Shown piece after piece: positions 1,325 through 30,602 of a stretch of 32,000 bases of DNA; the first letter of the stretch is position 1; every line of letters starts with the position of its first letter. Source of the stretch: an archaeon (GTDB lineage: Archaea > Iainarchaeota > Iainarchaeia > Iainarchaeales > CSSED10-239); assembly GCA_041657425.1 (NCBI GenBank), contig JBBABY010000003.1, forward strand, positions 106,952 to 138,951, in the 5' to 3' direction. The position numbers and the translations under genes are program-made. Under the pieces are notes generated by a model. It was given only the letters and a program-made list of their open reading frames with translations. It had not been told where the DNA came from and searched no databases.

Positions 1325-1560
1325 GTTGCTCTGCAACCAAAATAGATATATGCGTTTATAATATATAAAACCAGTGGTGTAAATCAAATCGAAAAACGAT
1401 TATTAATAGTAATTATTTTTCGTAGAAATAGATAGCGAACCTCGTTCGTCAACTGCTTACAAATTTCTTCGTAAGCTTGTAACTATGTCAGAGACACGCT
1501 ACATTTGGCTGGTTGACAGGCAGCCTACTCAAAACAGATATACCATCTTGAGCTATATTA
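1325..1560 (-). ncRNA. predicted TnpB guide RNA (omega/reRNA) scaffold region; extent is a guess
   Basis: In characterised TnpB systems the guide RNA overlaps the 3' end of tnpB and the right end of the element. This region holds stacked hairpins at 1455-1476 (GCTTAC/GTAAGC), 1436-1448 (CGAAC/GTTCG) and 1324-1338. Confidence 0.3.
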
Positions 1561-2591
1561 CGAGAAGCATTGAGATCAGCATGAAGTTCAAATCCACATT
1601 TACAGCATTTAAAAGAGGAACCATTACGATTGCCTTTATAGACATGCCCGCAAATTGAACATTTTTGAGAAGTATAACGAGCATCAATAAATATAACCCT
1701 CTTGCCAAGATTTTCGGCTTTATACCGGATAAACTGTTCAAGTTCAAAGAACGACCAATTGTTCAATTTTCGATTAAAAATTTTCCCGCGTCGTTTTTGT
1801 ACCCGAATTTTAGTAAGGTCTTCAAGAGCGAATACTGTATATTGGGTTTGTATAATTTGCTTCGAGATACAGTGATTAACATCAGTCACAAACCGTCTTT
1901 CTCGACCGGAAAGTTTCTTTAACTTTCTTTTAGCAGATCGAGTGCCTTTAGACTGTAATTGAGCTCGGAGATATGCGTACTGCGACCGCGTATTCTTCAC
2001 TGCCCGGGAATTAAAAAATGTGTTGTCGGAACAGACCGCAATGTTAATAATGCCTCTATCGATTCCAAGAACCATTTGATCGGGAATGATTTTGGGAGTA
2101 TTCGTTTCAATCTGACAATGCAAATAAAACATATTGCCAGTCTTACGAAGAGACAGTGTAGATGATTTAATTTTCCACGTTAAATATGGTATATAATACT
2201 TCGGAACTATAAATTCAACTTTTACTCTACCGTTTGAAGTAGCAATAGTTGCGTAACCAGATTCCAAACAAACCCTAATAACCTGCGAATTATATAACAT
2301 TGCCGAATGTTCTTTACGAATCGGTTTATATCGACACTTTACCGATTTCAAAGATGCGCAAGCAACATCTCTTGCACACTGAACCAACGAAGAGGGAAAA
2401 TTGGGTATCAATTCCCGAATTTTATAATAAGTTGATTTATGGCAATCTATCTTATTAGCAGTATGATTATCAAACCCCCAAGTTGAACAAATATTAAATG
2501 CGGTTGTATAATCTCTCATTGTTTTAAAAAGAGATATCTTCGCATCAGAAGAAACATTTAGTTTCAACTTGATTGTTCTAATCATATTCAT
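1488..2591 (-). CDS. tnpB: TnpB (OrfB) RNA-guided nuclease, IS200/IS605 family, 367 aa
   Basis: RuvC-like motifs LGIDRGI, FALEDL and HADLNASRNIA, with a zinc ribbon CSICGH...FKCCKCGF between them. Length is typical of the family. Confidence 0.9.
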   Translation of the reverse strand: MNMIRTIKLKLNVSSDAKISLFKTMRDYTTAFNICSTWGFDNHTANKIDCHKSTYYKIRELIPNFPSSLVQCARDVACASLKSVKCRYKPIRKEHSAMLYNSQVIRVCLESGYATIATSNGRVKVEFIVPKYYIPYLTWKIKSSTLSLRKTGNMFYLHCQIETNTPKIIPDQMVLGIDRGIINIAVCSDNTFFNSRAVKNTRSQYAYLRAQLQSKGTRSAKRKLKKLSGRERRFVTDVNHCISKQIIQTQYTVFALEDLTKIRVQKRRGKIFNRKLNNWSFFELEQFIRYKAENLGKRVIFIDARYTSQKCSICGHVYKGNRNGSSFKCCKCGFELHADLNASRNIAQDGISVLSRLPVNQPNVACL

Positions 2592-3648: not shown

Positions 3649-3719
3649 TAGGGCTAGGGTGAGTCGAACACCCGCCGCCGGCTCCAAAGGCCGGCATTAA
3701 TCCGCTAAACTGTAGCCCT
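3649..3719 (-). tRNA. tRNA-Gln (anticodon UUG)
   Basis: Reverse complement reads AGGGCTA...CCGGC-CTTTGGA-GCCGG-CGGC-GGGTG-TTCGACT-CACCC-TAGCCCT-A. The acceptor stem is a perfect 7 bp starting with A1-U72, which is an archaeal tRNA-Gln trait. The D arm is poorly paired. A TATA-like AAATAATA is centred near -25. Confidence 0.7.
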
Positions 3720-4876: not shown

Positions 4877-4949
4877 TAGGCTCGGTCAGGATCGAACTGA
4901 CACCCTTTGCCTTATAAGAACAACGCACCACCGATTGTGCTACGAGCCT
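4877..4949 (-). tRNA. tRNA-Ile (anticodon UAU)
   Basis: Reverse complement reads AGGCTCG-TA-GCAC-AATCGGTG-GTGC-G-TTGTT-CTTATAA-GGCAA-AGGGT-GTCAG-TTCGATC-CTGAC-CGAGCCT-A. This is a clean cloverleaf. A TATA-like TTTAAATATT lies at about -25 to -34. Confidence 0.8.
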
Positions 4950-11677: not shown

Positions 11678-11723
11678 ATCTATATACGTATTGGTTGTGA
11701 TGAGTTATATATGTTTCGATTAG

Positions 11724-11800
11724 TGGGCCAGATCGGATTTGAACCGATGAAATCTCCCGGTTATGAGCCGGGCGCTCTAACCGGACTGAGCTACAGGCCC
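11724..11800 (-). tRNA. tRNA with anticodon CAU (elongator Met, or Ile2 if C34 is modified)
   Basis: Reverse complement reads GGGCCTG-TA-GCTC-AGTCCGGTTA-GAGC-G-CCCGG-CTCATAA-CCGGG-AGATTTC-ATCGG-TTCAAAT-CCGAT-CTGGCCC-A. There is one U.U mismatch in the acceptor stem and a 7-nt variable region. Confidence 0.8.
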
Positions 11801-18871: not shown

Positions 18872-19052
18872 TCTCTGTTAATTCTATTTTATAGTATTTA
18901 AAAGTTTCGTGCACTCCAAACATTATAATGCACGATTTTATCTATTTTCGTGCACTTGATAAGAGCATCACACGGATATGAACCGCGAGATGCCCAATTT
19001 TATTGCGAACTCCACCGCAGGTTTCATGTGTATGCGGAACACAAGATGAAGG

Positions 19053-19125
19053 AGTTCGCAGGGGGAGTTGAACCCCCAACCTTCGGATTGCAATCCCGAC
19101 GCACTACCAATTGTGCTATGCGAAC
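19053..19125 (-). tRNA. tRNA, anticodon UGC by loop position (nominally Ala, but lacks G3:U70)
   Basis: Reverse complement reads GTTCGCA-TA-GCAC-AATTGGTA-GTGC-G-TCGGG-ATTGCAA-TCCGA-AGGTT-GGGGG-TTCAACT-CCCCC-TGCGAAC-T. A TATA-like TTTAAAAA is centred near -24. Flanking bases extend the acceptor helix to 10 bp. Confidence 0.7.
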
Positions 19126-21786: not shown

Positions 21787-22614
21787 TCATATCACACTTA
21801 TATTATCCCCATTACTACTTATAACTATCGTCCCACCCAAATCCGTTCTATACACTTTCACCTTTTCCAACCGCGCCAGTGTTTGTTTCGTCGGGTGTCC
21901 GTATTTATTATTCGCTCCAACTTCAATCACCGCATATCTTGGCACGATGGCATTTAAAAATTGCACACTACTCGCCGTTGAACTTCCGTGATGCCCAACC
22001 TTCAAAACATCCGCGCCTAATTCATCGCCACTCGTCACAAGTTTAGTTTCAATCGGGTATCCGGCATCTCCCATTAATAAGAATGTATTTCTACCATACG
22101 TGATTTGTAAAACCACGCTCTGTTCATTCAAATCTTCGGAATCAACATATCCTTTACTGCTCAAAACTTTCACAGACACGTTTGGGTCTAAAACAATAGA
22201 ATCTCCATGACGAACAATCACGTGGTTGGGAATTTTAGTCATCAACGAAGTATAAGTTTTTTCTGTGGAAGTTGATCCGCCATCAATGTATTCAGACGTT
22301 GGAACATTCGTGATAATGTATTCCATACCACCAATATGATCCACATGCGGATGGGTTGCAACCACTGCGTCTAGGTGTGTTACACCAATCTTCTTTAGAT
22401 ACGCAAGTTCCGACACTTCGGAATCCGTTGTGCCTGCATCCACGAGCATTGTTTCACCATTGGGAAATCGGACAAGTTCTGAATCTCCTTGACCAACATC
22501 GATGAAGTGAACAGCAAGATTACCGTTGTTATTTATGGGCGCAGGCACGGTTTGGGTGCAACCGACAATGAGAAGGAATAAAATGCATAGAATAAATGCG
22601 TATTGGAATTTCAT
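21787..22614 (-). CDS. secreted or lipobox MBL-fold hydrolase of the ComEC C-terminal-domain type
   Basis: Signal plus IVGC, then VHFIDVGQGDS and the HxHxDH motif (THPHVDHIGG), and later VGHHGS. This pattern is typical of the ComEC/Rec2 metallo-beta-lactamase domain. Confidence 0.8.
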   Translation of the reverse strand: MKFQYAFILCILFLLIVGCTQTVPAPINNNGNLAVHFIDVGQGDSELVRFPNGETMLVDAGTTDSEVSELAYLKKIGVTHLDAVVATHPHVDHIGGMEYIITNVPTSEYIDGGSTSTEKTYTSLMTKIPNHVIVRHGDSIVLDPNVSVKVLSSKGYVDSEDLNEQSVVLQITYGRNTFLLMGDAGYPIETKLVTSGDELGADVLKVGHHGSSTASSVQFLNAIVPRYAVIEVGANNKYGHPTKQTLARLEKVKVYRTDLGGTIVISSNGDNISVI

Positions 22615-23644: not shown

Positions 23645-26002
23645 CTAATCATTTAAGATAACAAATGTTGTTGGTTTATCGCTACCAGTCTTTTTATTCT
23701 CATACATCTTTATTTCTCCAGATTCTACCATAGTATTCAATGCAGTATTAAGGTCTTTGCTGTTAAGATGCGTCTTCTTTAAAAGTTTGGTTCTTTCCAC
23801 GGAACCCCCAAATCCAATTATAGCCTTTCTTACAATCACTTGGTGGTTTTTCATATCCGAATTATTGCATAGATCGTATACATACATCATACGTGGTATA
23901 AGATAATCGTTTACTATCTTTATTGCCATCATTGCGTGTTTATGGGGAATTGTTAGCACTATTGGTTGATATATTTCACCGGGTTCAAGTTTTTTTAACC
24001 TTTCCGGTATATTTTTTCTTTGGAATTCTTTATCGACCATAGTAAGGATCACTGCAATTTTATACGCATGTATAAACCCTCTTGAAATTGATGTTCTATA
24101 TGATTCGTCTTCAACACCAAGTTTTCCAAGCGTTGAGTTAAGTTTCCAATCTTCTATTTCGTTGCATACCCCAAATATAATACCATCATCTGGATATATT
24201 TCAAGTTTTGTTCTTAACCCAACAATCTCTTTAAACACATTGTTGGTAATCTTCTTATCGCTTTCAGATACATTTTCGTTCTTCCTCGGTGTTCCACCCT
24301 GACCATAAAACCACATTAATCGTGGGAAAAATCCGGATGAAAACAACCGTGCGCTTGCGACAGTTTCAATATCTTTATTCGTTGTATTGAATAATATAGA
24401 CATAAATGGTGTTGGGCATTCCCATTTATATTTCTCCCCGTTTTTTCCGCGTTTTGAAAGCGTTCTTTCAATTGCAGTGCAATCATATAAACTGCATAAT
24501 GTTCCAAGAACATGTGCATTCCAATTACCAGCATCTTCAAAAAATCCAGCGCAATCATCGTAATACCAAAGGGAATTATATGTTTCATCCAATCCTTGAA
24601 TAAGTGCGGGTTCGCTTATTGTCCCACGGAGAAGATTGGTTGATTGTAATTTATTTAAGTTTTCTTCATGGATGATTGCTTGGGAAAATGAATCGATGGC
24701 CATATTACATGCTACGGACTTTCCACTAATTGTTGTATGACCGACCACCATTGCAAATACATTAGTATAAATTTTTGTCATCCCTACTTGTATAAGAACT
24801 CTTCTTTTTATAGCCATTGATGCAATTGAAAGCAATGCCGCAAAGTGAAATTCGTGCAAAGAATATGACACTCGTTTACCTAATTCTATATATTCTTTAA
24901 ATAACCCTTCGTCAATTTCGGGAAAATTTGGAAGTTTACATCTGTCATTTGCAGCTTTTATTTCCATGTCGATTGTGTTACCAACAATTGGTGGATTGTT
25001 TGTAGTTGTGGTTTTAGTAGGGGGTTTTTGATTTATAATATTATTTATAGATCTTTCATCTATTATTTCTACATTTAAGTTTGGTGAATATTTTTCGTCT
25101 AGTTCTTTAAGTTCCTTTTCAAAACCATTGTCACGTAACCATTCAACAACTTCTTTAAATTGATCATCTGTTAATTTATTACAATCTTCTTCTGGAACAC
25201 CACAATGTGCATACGCTATCCAAGATATCGGGTCGCCACCAACGTCGTGACGATAACAATGAAAGACATTCTTATTCGAATTTATAGCAAAATTCATTTT
25301 TGTAGTGGAACCATGTATTGGATGCGTGCCTTGTATATCTCCATTTGCGCGCCTTTCGATTTTACCGGTTGGCATAGCGAAATTTTCTATTCGCAAATTT
25401 AGTTTATTCGTCAACGGGTTTTGTGCAATGTTTTTTGTTTTGACTGGTATTTCTTCTTTGATTTTTAATTTGAATTTGTCGAGCAATTCAGATTGAATAT
25501 CTTTCCAAGATATAGAAATCAAAGAAGCATTCGGGTCTTTATATTTATATTTTCTTTCGGTATCTGGATGAATGCTTCCAGCGCCAACTGTATAAAATGG
25601 CGATTCGCTGCCCCTTATATCCCCGAGTTGTATTTTTGGGTTATTTGGATCATTTATTAATATTTTATCTTTTGGGGAGTCGGGGCAATCGAAAAACAAA
25701 TGTCTTCCGATAACTCCACTTCTCCCAGTAATCACAGTAAGTGTTTTTTTCCAATGTCCCCCGATTGTCGAATATAATTCTTCGGTATCACAATCAATTA
25801 CTATCGTATTGTTGATTGGGATTATACCATAATTTTTTCCCGAAGATACATGATCTATGATTTCTGTATCATTCGGGAAGAAGCTATTTTCGACACTCCA
25901 AGTATCTTGGTCGGGAATTTTGGATTTCTGTTTTAACTTAATGAGTTTAACTCTGTTTTCAAGCGCGCGCGGAATGAACAATGTGTTTTCCAAAGATATC
26001 AC
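23645..26002 (-). CDS. replicase: N-terminal primase-polymerase (prim-pol) domain, degenerate zinc-binding segment, C-terminal P-loop NTPase/helicase-like domain; GTG start
   Basis: Prim-pol-like motifs VIDCD (DxD), GRSGVIGRHLFF and GAGSIHP; FHCYRHDVGGDPISWI resembles a primase zinc-finger region; Walker A is GHTTISGKS. Length is 785 aa. Confidence 0.8.
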   Translation of the reverse strand: MISLENTLFIPRALENRVKLIKLKQKSKIPDQDTWSVENSFFPNDTEIIDHVSSGKNYGIIPINNTIVIDCDTEELYSTIGGHWKKTLTVITGRSGVIGRHLFFDCPDSPKDKILINDPNNPKIQLGDIRGSESPFYTVGAGSIHPDTERKYKYKDPNASLISISWKDIQSELLDKFKLKIKEEIPVKTKNIAQNPLTNKLNLRIENFAMPTGKIERRANGDIQGTHPIHGSTTKMNFAINSNKNVFHCYRHDVGGDPISWIAYAHCGVPEEDCNKLTDDQFKEVVEWLRDNGFEKELKELDEKYSPNLNVEIIDERSINNIINQKPPTKTTTTNNPPIVGNTIDMEIKAANDRCKLPNFPEIDEGLFKEYIELGKRVSYSLHEFHFAALLSIASMAIKRRVLIQVGMTKIYTNVFAMVVGHTTISGKSVACNMAIDSFSQAIIHEENLNKLQSTNLLRGTISEPALIQGLDETYNSLWYYDDCAGFFEDAGNWNAHVLGTLCSLYDCTAIERTLSKRGKNGEKYKWECPTPFMSILFNTTNKDIETVASARLFSSGFFPRLMWFYGQGGTPRKNENVSESDKKITNNVFKEIVGLRTKLEIYPDDGIIFGVCNEIEDWKLNSTLGKLGVEDESYRTSISRGFIHAYKIAVILTMVDKEFQRKNIPERLKKLEPGEIYQPIVLTIPHKHAMMAIKIVNDYLIPRMMYVYDLCNNSDMKNHQVIVRKAIIGFGGSVERTKLLKKTHLNSKDLNTALNTMVESGEIKMYENKKTGSDKPTTFVILND

Positions 26003-26178
26003 TCACCGGGTTTCTTTTCTAAGTAGTCGGAGAGGCGTTTCACTGTTTCATATCCAACATTACCCGCCTGATTATTTGCTATTCTCCAAACCGTTGGTAT
26101 TGCAAGTCCTGTTCTTCTACTGACTTCGCTTAAGTTCCGGTCTTGTAAAATAGTAACAATTTCTTCCAGTGTCAACAT
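25999..26178 (-). CDS. small helix-turn-helix DNA-binding protein, 59 aa (not in the ORF track)
   Basis: Hand translation: MLTLEEIVTILQDRNLSEVSRRTGLAIPTVWRIANNQAGNVGYETVKRLSDYLEKKPGE. Its TGA overlaps the replicase GTG start as GTGA. Confidence 0.6.
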   Translation of the reverse strand: MLTLEEIVTILQDRNLSEVSRRTGLAIPTVWRIANNQAGNVGYETVKRLSDYLEKKPGE

Positions 26179-26271
26179 GTAAACAATGTAGGTGCTTCTA
26201 GTATTTAATTGTATCCATTTGATAAAAATTGTTTAGATAAGTATAAATAGTATGAGAACTTACATATATGC

Positions 26272-26853
26272 ATGACTGAAATAAAGCCAATACAAACCAA
26301 GTATAAAGGATGCAATTTTAGGTCAAGATTAGAAGCCCGATATGCTGTCTACTTTGATGTTCTTGGTATAAAATGGGAATATGAAATCGAAGGTTATGAT
26401 ATTAATGGAAAATGGTATTTGCCGGATTTTTGGTTACCAGAAATTAAAGTTTTTGTTGAGATCAAACCCGATAGCGATAAAGGAAGTGGTTTATATAGTG
26501 AGTTTTCTAGCAAAATAAACAATGCGATTGTGTTGATGCGTGGATCGCCTTGGAATTATATTGGTTGGTTTTATGGGTGGGACTCTTGTGATAGCGGCGG
26601 TGGTTCATATGATGACGAATGTATATTTGGAGTAGATGGGGATTGGGTGGGATTACAAGTTAGAACGGGAAGAGAAGATAGAATTGTATTTGTTTCTGAA
26701 TGGGATACAAACTCAAATGTTGTTTCACTATATCATCCGGACGACGAACAGTGGGAATACTTTAAACAAGACACATTTGAAGTGTTAACTAAAGATGCCG
26801 CATACAAAGCCCGTTCTGCGCGTTTTGAACATGGTGAATCCGGAGCAACATAG
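26272..26853 (+). CDS. PD-(D/E)XK-fold nuclease-like protein (phage-common family)
   Basis: YKGCNFRSRLEARYAVYFDVLGIKWEYE...YLPDFWLP...VFVEIKP gives a PD...E-x-K arrangement. The C-terminus ends AYKARSARFEHGESG. Confidence 0.55.
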   Translation: MTEIKPIQTKYKGCNFRSRLEARYAVYFDVLGIKWEYEIEGYDINGKWYLPDFWLPEIKVFVEIKPDSDKGSGLYSEFSSKINNAIVLMRGSPWNYIGWFYGWDSCDSGGGSYDDECIFGVDGDWVGLQVRTGREDRIVFVSEWDTNSNVVSLYHPDDEQWEYFKQDTFEVLTKDAAYKARSARFEHGESGAT

Positions 26854-26896
26854 AAAATTATATCTACGATGGACGCATATAGTGTTGTGATTAAAA

Positions 26897-27817
26897 ATGA
26901 CTACAACTTCAAAGAACTGCCAACTTAACAAAGCAAAGAAAGATAAGCAGGATGAGTTTTACACACAAATGTCCGATATAGAAAAGGAATTAAAACATTA
27001 TAAAGAATATTTCAAAGGGAAGACCGTTTTCTGCAATTGTGATGATCCGAGAGAAAGTAACTTCACGGGTTATTTTTGTTTAAAGTTTAAATATCTTGGG
27101 TTGAAGAAATTAATATCGACACATTATGATTCATTGAAACCCACATATAAACTAGAATACGACGGCGTGGACTTTAAAGAAACAAATTTGGAAGAAAACG
27201 GTGATTTTAGAAGCCCGCAATGTATCGAGTTATTGAAAGAATCCGATATTGTTGTTACCAACCCACCATTTTCTTTATTCCGTGAATATGTAGCGCAGTT
27301 GATGGAATATGAAAAGAGGTTTTTGATTATTGGGAGTTTGAATGCTATTACTTATAAAGAAATTTTCCCCCTGCTTAAAGAGAATAAAATATGGGTTGGG
27401 TATAATAATGGATATAAAGAATATATAGTGCCTAATTATTATGAATTAAATAGTAATGGATGTAGAGAAGAAAATGGGATTAAATATCGTGGTATGGGTA
27501 ATACTTATTGGTTTACAAATCTCGAAATAAAGAAGAGATGCGAAGAATTGATTCTTTATAAAAAATATAATGATGTAGAGTATCCCGAATATGACAATTA
27601 TGATGCTATTAATGTGAATAAGATTAAAGATATACCAATAGATTATTTTGGCGAGTTCGGTGTTCCAATTACATTTATTGATAAATATAACCCAGATCAG
27701 TTTGAGATTATTGGATGTATGACAACCACAAAGATTGATGAATTTAATTATGGGTATCCATATATAAATGGAAAAAAAGTTTATGCTCGCATCGTTATAA
27801 AAAGAAAGGTGAAGTAG
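26897..27817 (+). CDS. N6-adenine DNA methyltransferase (EcoRI-methylase-like family as I recall it)
   Basis: Catalytic motif IV NPPF in DIVVTNPPFSLFREY, with upstream DEFYT and FCNCDDP segments. Length is 306 aa. Confidence 0.8.
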   Translation: MTTTSKNCQLNKAKKDKQDEFYTQMSDIEKELKHYKEYFKGKTVFCNCDDPRESNFTGYFCLKFKYLGLKKLISTHYDSLKPTYKLEYDGVDFKETNLEENGDFRSPQCIELLKESDIVVTNPPFSLFREYVAQLMEYEKRFLIIGSLNAITYKEIFPLLKENKIWVGYNNGYKEYIVPNYYELNSNGCREENGIKYRGMGNTYWFTNLEIKKRCEELILYKKYNDVEYPEYDNYDAINVNKIKDIPIDYFGEFGVPITFIDKYNPDQFEIIGCMTTTKIDEFNYGYPYINGKKVYARIVIKRKVK

Positions 27818-28921
27818 ATGAAAATAATACTAAAAGAAATACCTATTAAAGAAATATCAGAAGGATATGTGGATGATGTTGAAAATGGGGCATTTGGATA
27901 TAATGGTAAACTAAATATTCGCCCACCATTTCAAAGAGAATTTGTTTATAATGTTAATCAAAGAAACGAAGTTATTAAAACAATTGTTAAAGGGTTCCCA
28001 TTAAATATTATGTATTGGGTAGTTAATAATAATGGCACATATGAATTGCTTGATGGTCAGCAAAGAACAGTGAGTATTTGCCAATATATTAATGGTGATT
28101 TTTCAGTAGATTGTATGTTTTTTCACAATCTCACAGATGTGGAAAAGGAACAAATATTAAATTATAAATTGATGATTTATATTTGTCAAGGCAATGATAA
28201 GGAGAAGTTAGATTGGTTTAAAATTATAAATATAGCAGGTATCAAACTCACTGATCAAGAATTGCGGAATGCCACTTATACGGGAGAGTGGCTTTCTGAC
28301 GCTAAAAAATATTTTTCAAAAAATATGTGCCCTGCTCACGATATTGCAAGTAAATATTTGGTGGGTTCGTCTATAAGACAAGATTATTTGGAAACCGCTA
28401 TAAAATGGATTTCTGAAAGAGACGGTATTGGGATAGAAGACTATATGTCAATCCACCAGCATGATACTAATGCCAATGAAATGTGGTTATATTTCCAAGG
28501 GGTTATTAATTGGGTGAAAGCAATATTTTCAAATTATAGAAAAGAAATGAAAGGGTTAGAATGGGGTATATTCTATAATAAATATAAGGATTTTAAATAC
28601 ACCCCCTCTATTATGGAAGATCGCATCAAAGAACTTATGGATGACGATGAAGTGGGAAATAAAAAAGGTATTTATAAATTCCTGTTGAGTGGAGAAAAAG
28701 ATCAGTCGTCTTTAAACTTACGAACCTTTGATGAAAAAATCACAACAAAAGTATATGAAAGACAAAAAGGTATATGCCCTATATGTGATCCCTCTAAACA
28801 TTATGAGTTTGAAGAGATGGAAGCGGATCATATTGTTCCGTGGGTAAAAGGTGGAAAATCGGTAGAAGATAATTGTCAGATGCTTTGTATGCACCATAAT
28901 AGAACGAAGTCGGGGAAATGA
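27818..28921 (+). CDS. DUF262 (ParB/Srx-like NTPase) domain fused to a C-terminal HNH nuclease
   Basis: DUF262 signatures FQREFVY and LLDGQQRT; the C-terminal HNH is EADHIVPWVKGGKSVEDNCQMLCMHHNRTK. Its start codon directly abuts the methyltransferase stop (TAGATG). Confidence 0.85.
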   Translation: MKIILKEIPIKEISEGYVDDVENGAFGYNGKLNIRPPFQREFVYNVNQRNEVIKTIVKGFPLNIMYWVVNNNGTYELLDGQQRTVSICQYINGDFSVDCMFFHNLTDVEKEQILNYKLMIYICQGNDKEKLDWFKIINIAGIKLTDQELRNATYTGEWLSDAKKYFSKNMCPAHDIASKYLVGSSIRQDYLETAIKWISERDGIGIEDYMSIHQHDTNANEMWLYFQGVINWVKAIFSNYRKEMKGLEWGIFYNKYKDFKYTPSIMEDRIKELMDDDEVGNKKGIYKFLLSGEKDQSSLNLRTFDEKITTKVYERQKGICPICDPSKHYEFEEMEADHIVPWVKGGKSVEDNCQMLCMHHNRTKSGK

Positions 28922-28922
28922 T

Positions 28923-29330
28923 ATGAAAACTATATATCCAATAAACGCGTATAACACTATTATGAAAACAAAATTCTTGATAATCCTTCTCCTCCTTCTA
29001 TGCATTACTCCTGTAATGGGAGATGAATCAAAAGTGCAGAATTCAATACAGCCCGCTTCGTCAGAAAAATGGTATATCGGGGGAAGCAATGACAGCTGGA
29101 CTTGGACCGACATTGGTTTAAACTCCACGGATGGGCGATCCCACCTCTCAATGTGCCCCACACAAGACCAGATCGTTTTAAACGCTCTGACTAAACAAAA
29201 TGATTTATTAGAAGAGTTGGTTAAAGCGCAGTGGGTTGAGACGTGCTACGTGCCATTTGATAACAATAATATTGGCAATCGCCCCGCGTGGCTATCAGAA
29301 TGCGTGAACGCAGGTTATCCGGTGGGCTGA
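28923..29330 (+). CDS. secreted hypothetical protein, 135 aa
   Basis: Signal-like FLIILLLLLCITPVMG; starts 1 nt after the preceding stop. Confidence 0.5.
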   Translation: MKTIYPINAYNTIMKTKFLIILLLLLCITPVMGDESKVQNSIQPASSEKWYIGGSNDSWTWTDIGLNSTDGRSHLSMCPTQDQIVLNALTKQNDLLEELVKAQWVETCYVPFDNNNIGNRPAWLSECVNAGYPVG

Positions 29331-29337
29331 ATTAATT

Positions 29338-29523
29338 ATGAATGGAGATACAAAAGATACAATTAATCTTGTAATAAAATTTGCGTCGGTTAGAGAATTA
29401 AGAAGTTCTCTTGTGGTAAATTCTCAAGATGATCAAATTACTGGGATTAATATAAGATTCACAGAATCCATCAAATTATCAGATTTCCCGAGCATTCAAA
29501 AAATTGTGGATAATAAAATATGA
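29338..29523 (+). CDS. hypothetical protein, 61 aa
   Basis: ORF track only. Confidence 0.35.
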   Translation: MNGDTKDTINLVIKFASVRELRSSLVVNSQDDQITGINIRFTESIKLSDFPSIQKIVDNKI

Positions 29524-29702
29524 TTAAAGAAGAAAAGGAAACGGTAACATTTGCAGATGTTTTTAGTAAGACCGACATTATAACTATTTTGATTACCACG
29601 TTTTTACTTATTTTTGTGTTTGGTTTTTTAGTTCCACGTGTTTTTCAATTTGGTCAATATTTAACTATGGTTTCAAATAGTTATGGTGGACTTGGTTTTT
29701 AA
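29520..29702 (+). CDS. small membrane protein, 60 aa
   Basis: One transmembrane segment (IITILITTFLLIFVFGFLV); ATGA overlap with the previous ORF. Confidence 0.4.
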   Translation: MIKEEKETVTFADVFSKTDIITILITTFLLIFVFGFLVPRVFQFGQYLTMVSNSYGGLGF

Positions 29703-29817
29703 TCTTCCAACCATAACTATTTATACTAACGCGTCCTACATAGATACGCGATTTGGGCATATGCTGCCCCGACCGTAACATGAAACGACAAACGAACAAA
29801 ACGAAAGGAGATCTATT

Positions 29818-30602
29818 GTGATTGATTTAAACAAAATTTCAAAGAAGAACGCTCCTAAAATCCCATTGGTTGTTATCTATGGACCTGAAGGAATTGGCAA
29901 ATCTACTTTCGGGTCTATGGCAAAAGACTCCATTTTAATTCTTACTGAAGATGGATTGGGAGACATTGACGCCACTGCGATCCCACAGGATGAAAATGGC
30001 AAACCCCGCGCAGCGCGTTCCTATGAAGAGGTGATGGATTTATTCAGATCCTTGCCACGACCGATCATGATTACAAGACCGTGGTTATAGATACGCTCGA
30101 TTGGTTCCAACCCCTTGTATGGAAGGCTACGTGCAAACGTCTCAACGCAAAGTCTATCGAAGACCCGGGTTACGGGCGCGGTTATGTTGAATGCATGACT
30201 GAGTGGCAGGATTTTCTTGATGCCTTGACATATCTGCGCGATACAAAGGGAATGATGGTTATTCTGGTTGCGCATTCTGCCGTGGTCAAGATTGAAGATC
30301 CCCTGTGTTCCGCATACGACAAGAACACGCTCAAACTCCAGAAACTTGCGGCTGCTAAAATTGTTGAATGGGGCGACGTGGTGGGGTTCTGTTCGCTCAC
30401 AACTCTGACTCGTAGTGAAAAAGCAGGTTTTGACAAGACCAGAAATATTGCCGTGTCAACAGGACAGCGCGTCTTGCATGTTGCTCCAACAGCAGGCTAT
30501 GTAGCAAAGAAACGTTACCGTAATATGCCCGATGAAATGCCACTGGATTACACGGAATTTGAGAAGTATATTCCGGGTGGAAGTGTAAAGAAAGAGGAAT
30601 GA
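29818..30602 (+). pseudogene. Sak4-like (AAA_24 / RecA-fold) recombination ATPase split by a 1-nt frameshift near 30050-30060
   Basis: ORF 29818-30090 carries Walker A (VIYGPEGIGKST). Frame 3 is open from 30027 and reads ..ATTDHDYKTVVIDTLDWF.. (Walker B-like) into ORF 30081-30602. The GTG start has AAAGGAG upstream. Confidence 0.7.

Follow-up and report, generated by a model that had tools for sequence, protein, structure and literature searches.

Three adjacent genes at positions 26272 to 28921 of a 32,000-nucleotide stretch of archaeal DNA raise the question of whether they form one defence system, a smaller system beside an unrelated neighbour, or no defence system at all. This stretch, which is called the window below, comes from a genome assigned to the Iainarchaeales (CSSED10-239; assembly GCA_041657425.1, contig JBBABY010000003.1, positions 106,952 to 138,951 of the forward strand). 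The genes encode, in this order, a nuclease of the PD-(D/E)XK type (gene 1), an N6-adenine DNA methyltransferase (MTase), and a protein in which a DUF262 domain is followed by an HNH nuclease domain (the DUF262-HNH nuclease). A first-pass annotation, made from the letters of the window, had grouped the three as a candidate defence or exclusion module and had offered several roles for the last two. We propose that the segment 26897-28921, which holds the MTase and nuclease genes and excludes gene 1, is a restriction-modification (R-M) cassette of the Type II kind, with the modification gene (M) preceding the restriction gene (R), and that it is carried as cargo by a virus-like element; we put the probability of this reading at about 0.8.

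Organisation of the locus

All three open reading frames (ORFs) lie where the first-pass annotation had placed them (Table 1), and the motifs that it had read in their products, namely RSRLEA, PDF and EIK in gene 1, NPPF in the MTase and DGQQR in the nuclease, are all present. Chance is far from able to explain the features of the MTase and of the nuclease, since the full-length homologs of each family run into the thousands. As is expected of a Type II system, the M and R genes are separate, adjacent and on the same strand (26897-27817 and 27818-28921). The abutment of the two genes, which had also been claimed, can be read directly from the sequence: the junction letters are AGGTGAAGTAG followed by ATG, where the TAG stop codon of the MTase gene occupies 27815-27817 and the start codon of the nuclease gene occupies 27818-27820, and the wider junction reads AAAGGTGAAGTAG followed by ATGAAA. 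There is a Shine-Dalgarno motif, AGGTGA, at 27807-27812, within the 3' end of the MTase gene. Since this motif lies inside the MTase gene and the stop codon abuts the start codon, the arrangement suggests that translation of the nuclease is coupled to the end of the MTase gene. A scan of positions 25900-30000 for promoters and terminators gave the same counts as were obtained with shuffled sequence.

Table 1. Features of the window discussed in the text, beginning with the gene pair and its surroundings
Feature	Position	Strand	Remarks
Gene 1, PD-(D/E)XK nuclease	26272-26853	+	193-aa ORF
EcoRI-family N6-adenine DNA methyltransferase	26897-27817	+	306-aa ORF; PF13651
DUF262-HNH restriction endonuclease (putative)	27818-28921	+	367-aa ORF; PF03235 and PF01844
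MTase/nuclease junction, predicted translational coupling	27807-27820	+	Read from the sequence
DUF262 (ParB/sulfiredoxin-like) domain of the nuclease	27917-28279	+	aa 34-154; PF03235
HNH domain of the nuclease	28775-28912	+	aa 320-365; PF01844
Cargo slot without homology to sister elements	26864-29192	.	Boundaries from blastn
Prim-Pol/DUF3987 primase	23645-26002	-	
Small helix-turn-helix (HTH) regulator	25999-26178	-	
Metallo-beta-lactamase-fold protein	21787-22614	-	Pfam Anti-Pycsar_Apyc1; strong match to PHROG 14556
TnpB/IS605 OrfB-family protein	1488-2591	-	Cas12f1-like TNB and OrfB_IS605 domains; adjoins two tRNA genes
Five tRNA genes	2803-2882, 3649-3719, 4877-4949, 11723-11800, 19051-19125	all -	

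Linkage of the two genes in genomes, viruses and plasmids

The reading of the two genes as an R-M-like pair, in which the DUF262-HNH protein is the restriction component, had been put forward together with the proviso that they should co-occur elsewhere. They do. A survey of one genome per species gave 334 relatives of the nuclease, and the best 80 loci, in which the nuclease is 59-66% identical to that of the window, were examined. These loci are spread over Clostridia, Treponema, Bifidobacteriaceae, candidate phyla radiation (CPR) bacteria, Bacteroidota, Alphaproteobacteria, Chloroflexi, Methanosarcinales and Iainarchaeia. By tblastn, 76 of the 80 have an MTase gene of the EcoRI family as the immediate upstream neighbour of the nuclease gene, in the same orientation. 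Of the four exceptions, two are cut off less than 500 nt upstream of the nuclease gene; in a third the upstream stretch is just 1 kb long and is occupied by a zeta-toxin-like gene before the contig ends. In the remaining one, from Falkowbacteria (L078:155-2266), AbiJ-like and RhuM-family genes fill the upstream space between the nuclease homolog and the contig end, which gives the homolog a defence-island-like context.

The same was found in viruses. A relative of the nuclease is present on 217 IMG/VR contigs, and when the best 80 of these were examined together with three GenBank phage loci the MTase gene was directly upstream in 79 of the 83; in the other four it lies downstream (one locus), there is no upstream sequence (two), or no MTase gene is found within 1.6 kb (one). 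For genome and viral loci together, 155 of 163 have the MTase gene as the immediate upstream neighbour in the same orientation. The genes are also adjacent on plasmids, for example Macrococcoides canis pMiCAN82a and pRGI00069, and plasmid carriers of the pair include Macrococcoides, Mammaliicoccus, Aeromonas, Gordonia, Variovorax and Enterococcus, as well as others. Linkage is thus kept while the pair moves among unrelated genomes, which is what a Type II system should show, and a linkage so nearly obligate in hosts that are unrelated is characteristic of a restriction enzyme with its protective methylase.

A more distant likeness is provided by the cultured Flavobacterium phage vB_FspS_laban6-1, whose overlapping genes gp07 and gp08 encode PF13651 and DUF262 proteins and form a moron inserted on the strand opposite to its neighbours. 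Its nuclease is only about 38% identical and is annotated merely as a 'DUF262 domain-containing protein'. In three loci a small ORF lies between the MTase and nuclease genes, at L019:5498-6004 (168 aa), L040:1431-1835 (134 aa) and L055:4697-5434 (245 aa). None of these three has a Pfam match, and they could encode a controller protein or be inserted genes.

The methyltransferase and its kinship with M.EcoRI

The MTase matches the Pfam family EcoRI_methylase (PF13651) with E=1.6e-121. It belongs to a family of proven MTases, as would be expected of the M component of a Type II system, and has its catalytic and S-adenosylmethionine-binding motifs intact: in an alignment of 77 MTases that includes M.EcoRI, the motifs NCDD (residues 47-50) and NPPF (residues 122-125) are at least 97% conserved. 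For this comparison M.EcoRI was taken as the product of the gene annotated beside 'type-2 restriction enzyme EcoRI' on an E. coli plasmid. Over its full length the MTase of the window is 49.8% identical to M.EcoRI by tblastn and 54% identical in the alignment. M.EcoRI is 46-58% identical to the 76 MTases of the surveyed cassettes, which are 43-98% identical among themselves, and in a neighbour-joining tree it is nested within these 76. Because M.EcoRI is nested in the tree, a single MTase lineage partners either R.EcoRI, a PD-(D/E)XK enzyme, or a DUF262-HNH enzyme. A sequence search of solved structures in the Protein Data Bank (PDB) gave no match to the MTase, and NCBIfam holds no model specific to either the MTase or the nuclease.

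The cassette and the EcoRI system are therefore alike in their MTase, which is of the same family at 50-54% identity, and in being two-gene, co-oriented Type II arrangements on mobile DNA. They differ in the nuclease, since R.EcoRI is a PD-(D/E)XK protein of 277 aa and the protein found here is an unrelated one of 367 aa with DUF262 and HNH domains. They also differ in gene order: on the EcoRI plasmid locus the R.EcoRI gene (834 nt) is upstream of the MTase gene, whereas in the window the order is M to R.

Domains, conserved residues and fold of the nuclease

The first-pass annotation had noted that the DUF262 domain, recognised by its DGQQR motif, is fused here to a classical HNH domain in place of DUF1524, and Pfam, fold and PDB profile matches all bear this out. 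Residues 34-154 match GmrSD_N/DUF262 (PF03235; E=5.6e-18) and residues 320-365 match HNH (PF01844; E=4e-9), with a further match to the HNH family PF14279, whereas DUF1524 was not found in the Pfam scan. The HNH motif reads A-D-H-I-x-P-W, with CxxC zinc ligands, and is distinct from the EHxxP motif of DUF1524. The residues on which activity should depend are not missing from the alignments, which was a check that had been asked of this reading: in alignments of 22 and 38 members, Q39-R40-E41-F42 and D79-G80-Q81-Q82-R83 are invariant, and so are C320, C323, D337-H338, N352, C357 and N361. By their motifs, QREF and DGQQR are predicted to form the nucleotide pocket of the DUF262 domain, and thus to bind a nucleotide, and the invariant C-terminal residues are assigned to the HNH active site and its zinc ligands. 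At least 8000 homologs of the nuclease were found, and the best 120 all have both domains.

The AlphaFold model of the nuclease has a predicted local distance difference test (pLDDT) score of 80, and its best fold match in the PDB by Foldseek is BrxU (7p9k; E=1.9e-4), followed by the CTP-binding N-terminal domains of ParB and Noc and then by sulfiredoxin. The C-terminus matches the HNH domains of Gme and Cas9, and the match to SspE is weak. In the PDB profile search the HNH domain matched the Gme HNH nuclease (4h9d; E=5e-6) and McrA (6ghc); in the PDB sequence search the nuclease was matched through its HNH domain only, and no solved structure with the DUF262-HNH architecture was found. NCBIfam gave weak matches of the HNH domain to the Cas9d and IscB models, far under their cut-offs.

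Two groups of known enzymes are therefore relevant. With GmrSD, BrxU and SspE the nuclease shares an N-terminal, ParB/sulfiredoxin-like DUF262 domain with an invariant DGQQR, BrxU being its best structural match, and a C-terminal nuclease of the His-Me-finger kind. It differs from them in having the classical zinc-HNH domain PF01844 where they have DUF1524, in its length of 367 aa compared with about 560-770 aa, and in that its family is nearly always linked to an MTase, which implies that cutting is blocked by modification rather than dependent on it. The DUF262 nucleases that have been studied are stimulated by nucleoside triphosphates (NTPs) and act on, or sense, modified DNA (PMC12707154, PMC4619093, PMC11322646). 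With the HNH enzymes among the Type II restriction endonucleases, such as KpnI, Hpy99I, PacI, MboII, SphI and NlaIII, it shares the ββα-metal HNH fold, which often has a zinc bound by cysteines, and the role of R component in a Type II pair (PMC4081073). It is unlike them in its ParB/sulfiredoxin-like DUF262 domain, which is not described for any of the HNH subfamilies met with in a survey of 2008 (PMC2441816) or a review of 2014 (PMC4081073).

The pair is cargo of a virus-like element

The virus-like element has a variable slot in its early operon, and the R-M pair fills this slot as inserted cargo of about 2.3 kb. Two sister elements (L090 and L092) have the same backbone of primase, HTH regulator, gene 1, AAA_24 ATPase and DUF669 protein, and in them gene 1 is 88% identical to that of the window, but the MTase and nuclease genes are absent and the slot holds a SprT-like gene of 116 aa. 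Because these elements share the backbone without the cassette, the pair is exchangeable cargo. By blastn, the homology between the window and L090 or L091 stops at 26863-26879 and restarts at 29193-29223, and the former end, 26863, is ten bases past the stop codon of gene 1. The search for repeats flanking the cassette gave only AT-rich chance matches. Downstream of the nuclease gene lies a gene at 28923-29330, with a probable true start at 28962, which encodes a small protein with an N-terminal stretch resembling a signal peptide (MKTKFLIILLLLLCITPVMG). Only the 3' part of this gene, from 29193, is homologous to a 122-aa gene of the sister elements, and therefore the cargo boundary lies inside or just before it.

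Gene 1 is part of the backbone

That gene 1 has the PD-(D/E)XK fold, as had been claimed, is upheld by an invariant core and by fold matches that are weak and all of this fold. In 41 homologs E21, D52, E63 and K65 are invariant, and the AlphaFold model (pLDDT 88.8) gave Foldseek matches headed by Cas4 and Bax1 at E of about 0.008. The family has about 3800 proteins and no Pfam model. The match of gene 1 to PHROG 21138 spans the full length and that to PHROG 9019, 'Holliday junction resolvase', 60 residues only (E=1.8e-9), while the PDB sequence match to the structure of T7 endonuclease I (1m0d) has E=0.19. Many unrelated phages also have the N-terminal domain of gene 1, under the annotation Holliday junction resolvase or endonuclease I.

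The inclusion of gene 1 in a three-gene module could not be sustained. No homolog of gene 1 is present in the 80 genome loci or in the 83 viral loci that carry the pair (0 of 163), and the sister elements keep gene 1 without the pair. We conclude that gene 1 is a PD-(D/E)XK nuclease of the viral replication and recombination backbone and lies outside the R-M module.

Two further observations on gene 1 were made. After a long helix, its C-terminal tail A-R-S-A-R-F-E-H-G-E (window 26821-26850) is strongly conserved, with R184, F185 and E186 invariant in the 41 sequences, and this tail might be a peptide on which a partner protein docks. Upstream, positions 26179-26271 form a divergent intergenic region that separates gene 1 from the HTH and primase genes. 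A Shine-Dalgarno motif is lacking before gene 1, and its ATG is preceded, at a distance of about 25 nt, by a TATA-like AAGTATAAATAG; by its letters the region resembles an archaeal leaderless promoter.

Proposed mode of action and recognition site

Based on these findings we propose that the MTase would place N6-methyladenine on a short site and that this mark would identify the DNA of the element, and also that of the host if the element is resident, as self. The nuclease, translated in coupling with the end of the MTase gene, would cut unmarked DNA through its C-terminal, zinc-stabilised HNH site. Its N-terminal ParB/sulfiredoxin-like DUF262 domain, with the DGQQR pocket intact, probably binds a nucleotide, and this binding probably gates or activates cleavage as it does in BrxU, GmrSD and SspE, while the helical middle region of the protein probably reads the DNA sequence. 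The likely pay-off for the element would be the exclusion of competing phages and plasmids, and the location of the pair in a variable cargo slot of an early operon fits with this. Degradation of unmethylated host DNA and post-segregational stabilisation may be further effects.

The recognition site is probably GAATTC or another site with an AATT core, because M.EcoRI is 50-54% identical to the MTase and is nested in the tree of the cassette MTases. Since the nuclease has an obligate MTase partner, modification is expected to block cleavage, which is the opposite of the logic of the DUF262 nucleases studied so far. That the DGQQR pocket is invariant suggests a continued role for nucleotide binding, and for the same reason it casts doubt on whether the enzyme conforms to the Type II definition in having no NTP requirement.

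The pair in databases and in the literature

The first-pass annotation could not say whether this architecture had been characterised. It has been catalogued, whereas its biochemistry was not found in the literature searched. The MTase matches the PADLOC model MTase_II (PDLC03297) over its full length (E=5.6e-117), and residues 1-367 of the nuclease match positions 1-372 of the 372 of REase_II (PDLC03418; E=1.1e-132), while the match of the nuclease to the PADLOC type IV model is marginal (E=0.0067). With full-length matches to both Type II models, the pair would be reported as a Type II R-M system in a standard defence-finder run.

REBASE has a putative Type II system, Pin25611FORF1345P, in Prevotella intermedia ATCC 25611F, whose MTase is 51% identical to M.EcoRI and is immediately followed by an R gene of 1104 nt; the system lies in a strain-variable locus of 2.6 kb that another strain lacks, and the site predicted for the system is GAATTC (PMC5608340). 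The R gene has the same length as the nuclease gene of the window, and judging by arrangement and length it is likely that this is the same cassette, although there it is chromosomal in a host of the Bacteroidota and not borne by a virus. The cassette of the window is thus a further copy of a widespread, catalogued and horizontally mobile type of R-M system.

Alternative explanations

Several points weigh against the proposal of a working Type II-kind cassette. The name 'Type II' in PADLOC is the label of that database. We infer from the linkage of the genes that unmethylated DNA is cleaved and that methylation blocks the cleavage, and the logic of GmrSD, BrxU and SspE, which depend on or sense modification, is the opposite (PMC12707154, PMC4619093). 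A search of the literature, covering full text and the main reviews, turned up no biochemistry of any DUF262-HNH enzyme that is paired with an MTase; a paper on a Paracoccus R-M system with an HNH endonuclease could not be tied to this family. When observed/expected ratios were calculated for all palindromes of 4 and 6 bp across 813 kb of DNA from loci that carry the cassette, as well as in the window, no site was singled out by depletion; the ratio for GAATTC was 0.64, which is unremarkable among many sites that are generally avoided. There is also the case of M.CjeNI, which is presumably EcoRI-like. For this enzyme of Campylobacter jejuni the site was first reported as GAATTC and was given as RAATTY by SMRT sequencing (PMC3526280), and prediction of a site by homology has thus failed elsewhere. 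Finally, GAATTC methylation was undetected in the methylome of P. intermedia and the system was scored inactive (PMC5608340), which leaves two readings, a silent copy there or a mistaken prediction of the site.

The last point also speaks for the view that the pair is a genuine R-M system but is silent or decaying here, a selfish module that hitch-hikes without active restriction. The frameshift in a Sak4-like gene 1.1 kb downstream is in line with this view, since the element may be less than fully functional in this copy. However, both ORFs are of full length with all invariant catalytic residues intact, the two proteins are 100% identical in several independent assemblies, and conservation over thousands of homologs (59-85% identity) implies purifying selection on the family. 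We consider a silent copy unlikely. Somewhat less probable still is that the nuclease, in the manner of GmrSD or BrxU, is a type IV enzyme dependent on modification and that the MTase is an independent anti-restriction methylase of the virus. Phages often carry orphan MTases, and BrxU is the best fold match of the nuclease; moreover, all DUF262 nucleases studied by experiment depend on or sense modification (PMC12707154, PMC4619093). Against this, 155 of 163 loci, from unrelated hosts and viruses, have an MTase gene of the same family immediately before the nuclease gene and in the same orientation. Type IV enzymes are typically solitary, and a nuclease dependent on N6-methyladenine that is coupled to an N6-adenine MTase would destroy its own carrier. 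The C-terminus is a zinc-HNH domain and not DUF1524, and the PADLOC type IV match (0.0067) is to be set against 1e-132 for Type II. The combination of a type IV enzyme with an orphan MTase, one of the roles suggested earlier, is thus disfavoured by the near-obligate linkage.

It is very improbable that all three genes make up one three-component defence or exclusion system. They are, to be sure, consecutive and co-oriented downstream of a divergent promoter region, and the active site of gene 1 is intact. But gene 1 does not accompany the pair in any of the loci surveyed, the sister elements keep it beside the same primase and HTH genes without the pair, the homology to these elements stops just past its stop codon, and its nuclease domain is common in unrelated phages. 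The remaining role that had been suggested, that of a replication or partition accessory resembling ParB or sulfiredoxin, is rejected in view of the invariant HNH site together with the near-obligate MTase linkage. The most likely explanation therefore remains that the MTase and DUF262-HNH genes are an R-M pair: it is backed by the linkage, by the invariant residues in both domains of the nuclease and by the PADLOC Type II matches.

Other features of the window

Downstream of the cassette the backbone continues with genes for a Sak4-like AAA_24 ATPase and a DUF669 single-strand DNA-binding protein, and further along the parent contig there are genes for an SNF2 helicase and a VRR-NUC nuclease. 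Judged by these domains, the genes around the cassette are a virus-type replication and recombination module. The primase of the window has no match among GenBank phages. Compared with two further assemblies of this element, the window lacks a single G at 30041. This 1-nt deletion divides the Sak4-like AAA_24 gene into the ORFs 29818-30090 and 30081-30602, while the gene is intact (261 aa) in L001 and L003, and it is either a strain frameshift or an assembly error.

The product of the metallo-beta-lactamase-fold gene is by its matches a candidate phage nuclease that would degrade cyclic-nucleotide defence signals. The left half of the window holds sugar-biosynthesis genes, the TnpB gene, small unknown ORFs and scattered tRNA genes, among them one with an anticodon loop of 8 nt (anticodon 'gcat') and a tRNA-Ile(TAT). 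Scans for tRNA genes and Rfam families gave nothing diagnostic of the host. Two independent assemblies yield contigs of 138,947 and 138,951 bp, and because of these lengths in separate assemblies and the scattered tRNA genes the whole contig may be one large virus or plasmid genome and not a chromosome with a provirus.

Implications for restriction-modification

As an annotation the cassette is ordinary and is already called by standard defence finders. What gives it wider interest is that homologs of its nuclease, numbering at least 8000, occur in bacteria, archaea and plasmids and on 217 viral contigs, yet their enzymology is absent from the literature searched. We tentatively suggest, with rather less confidence than the cassette itself deserves, that the DUF262-HNH enzymes constitute a large unstudied class of restriction enzymes which are blocked by methylation, gated by a nucleotide through the ParB/sulfiredoxin-like domain, and served by an MTase lineage, and possibly a site, shared with EcoRI. 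If this is the case, then the DUF262 module would attack unmodified DNA, the reverse of what it does in GmrSD, BrxU and SspE, and the boundary between Type II systems and the NTP-dependent types would be blurred. A nucleotide-dependent HNH enzyme and R.EcoRI would then be non-homologous and interchangeable partners of the same methylase. The presence of M.EcoRI in the same clade as the cassette MTases provides a clean natural case of one methylase lineage that swaps unrelated nucleases.

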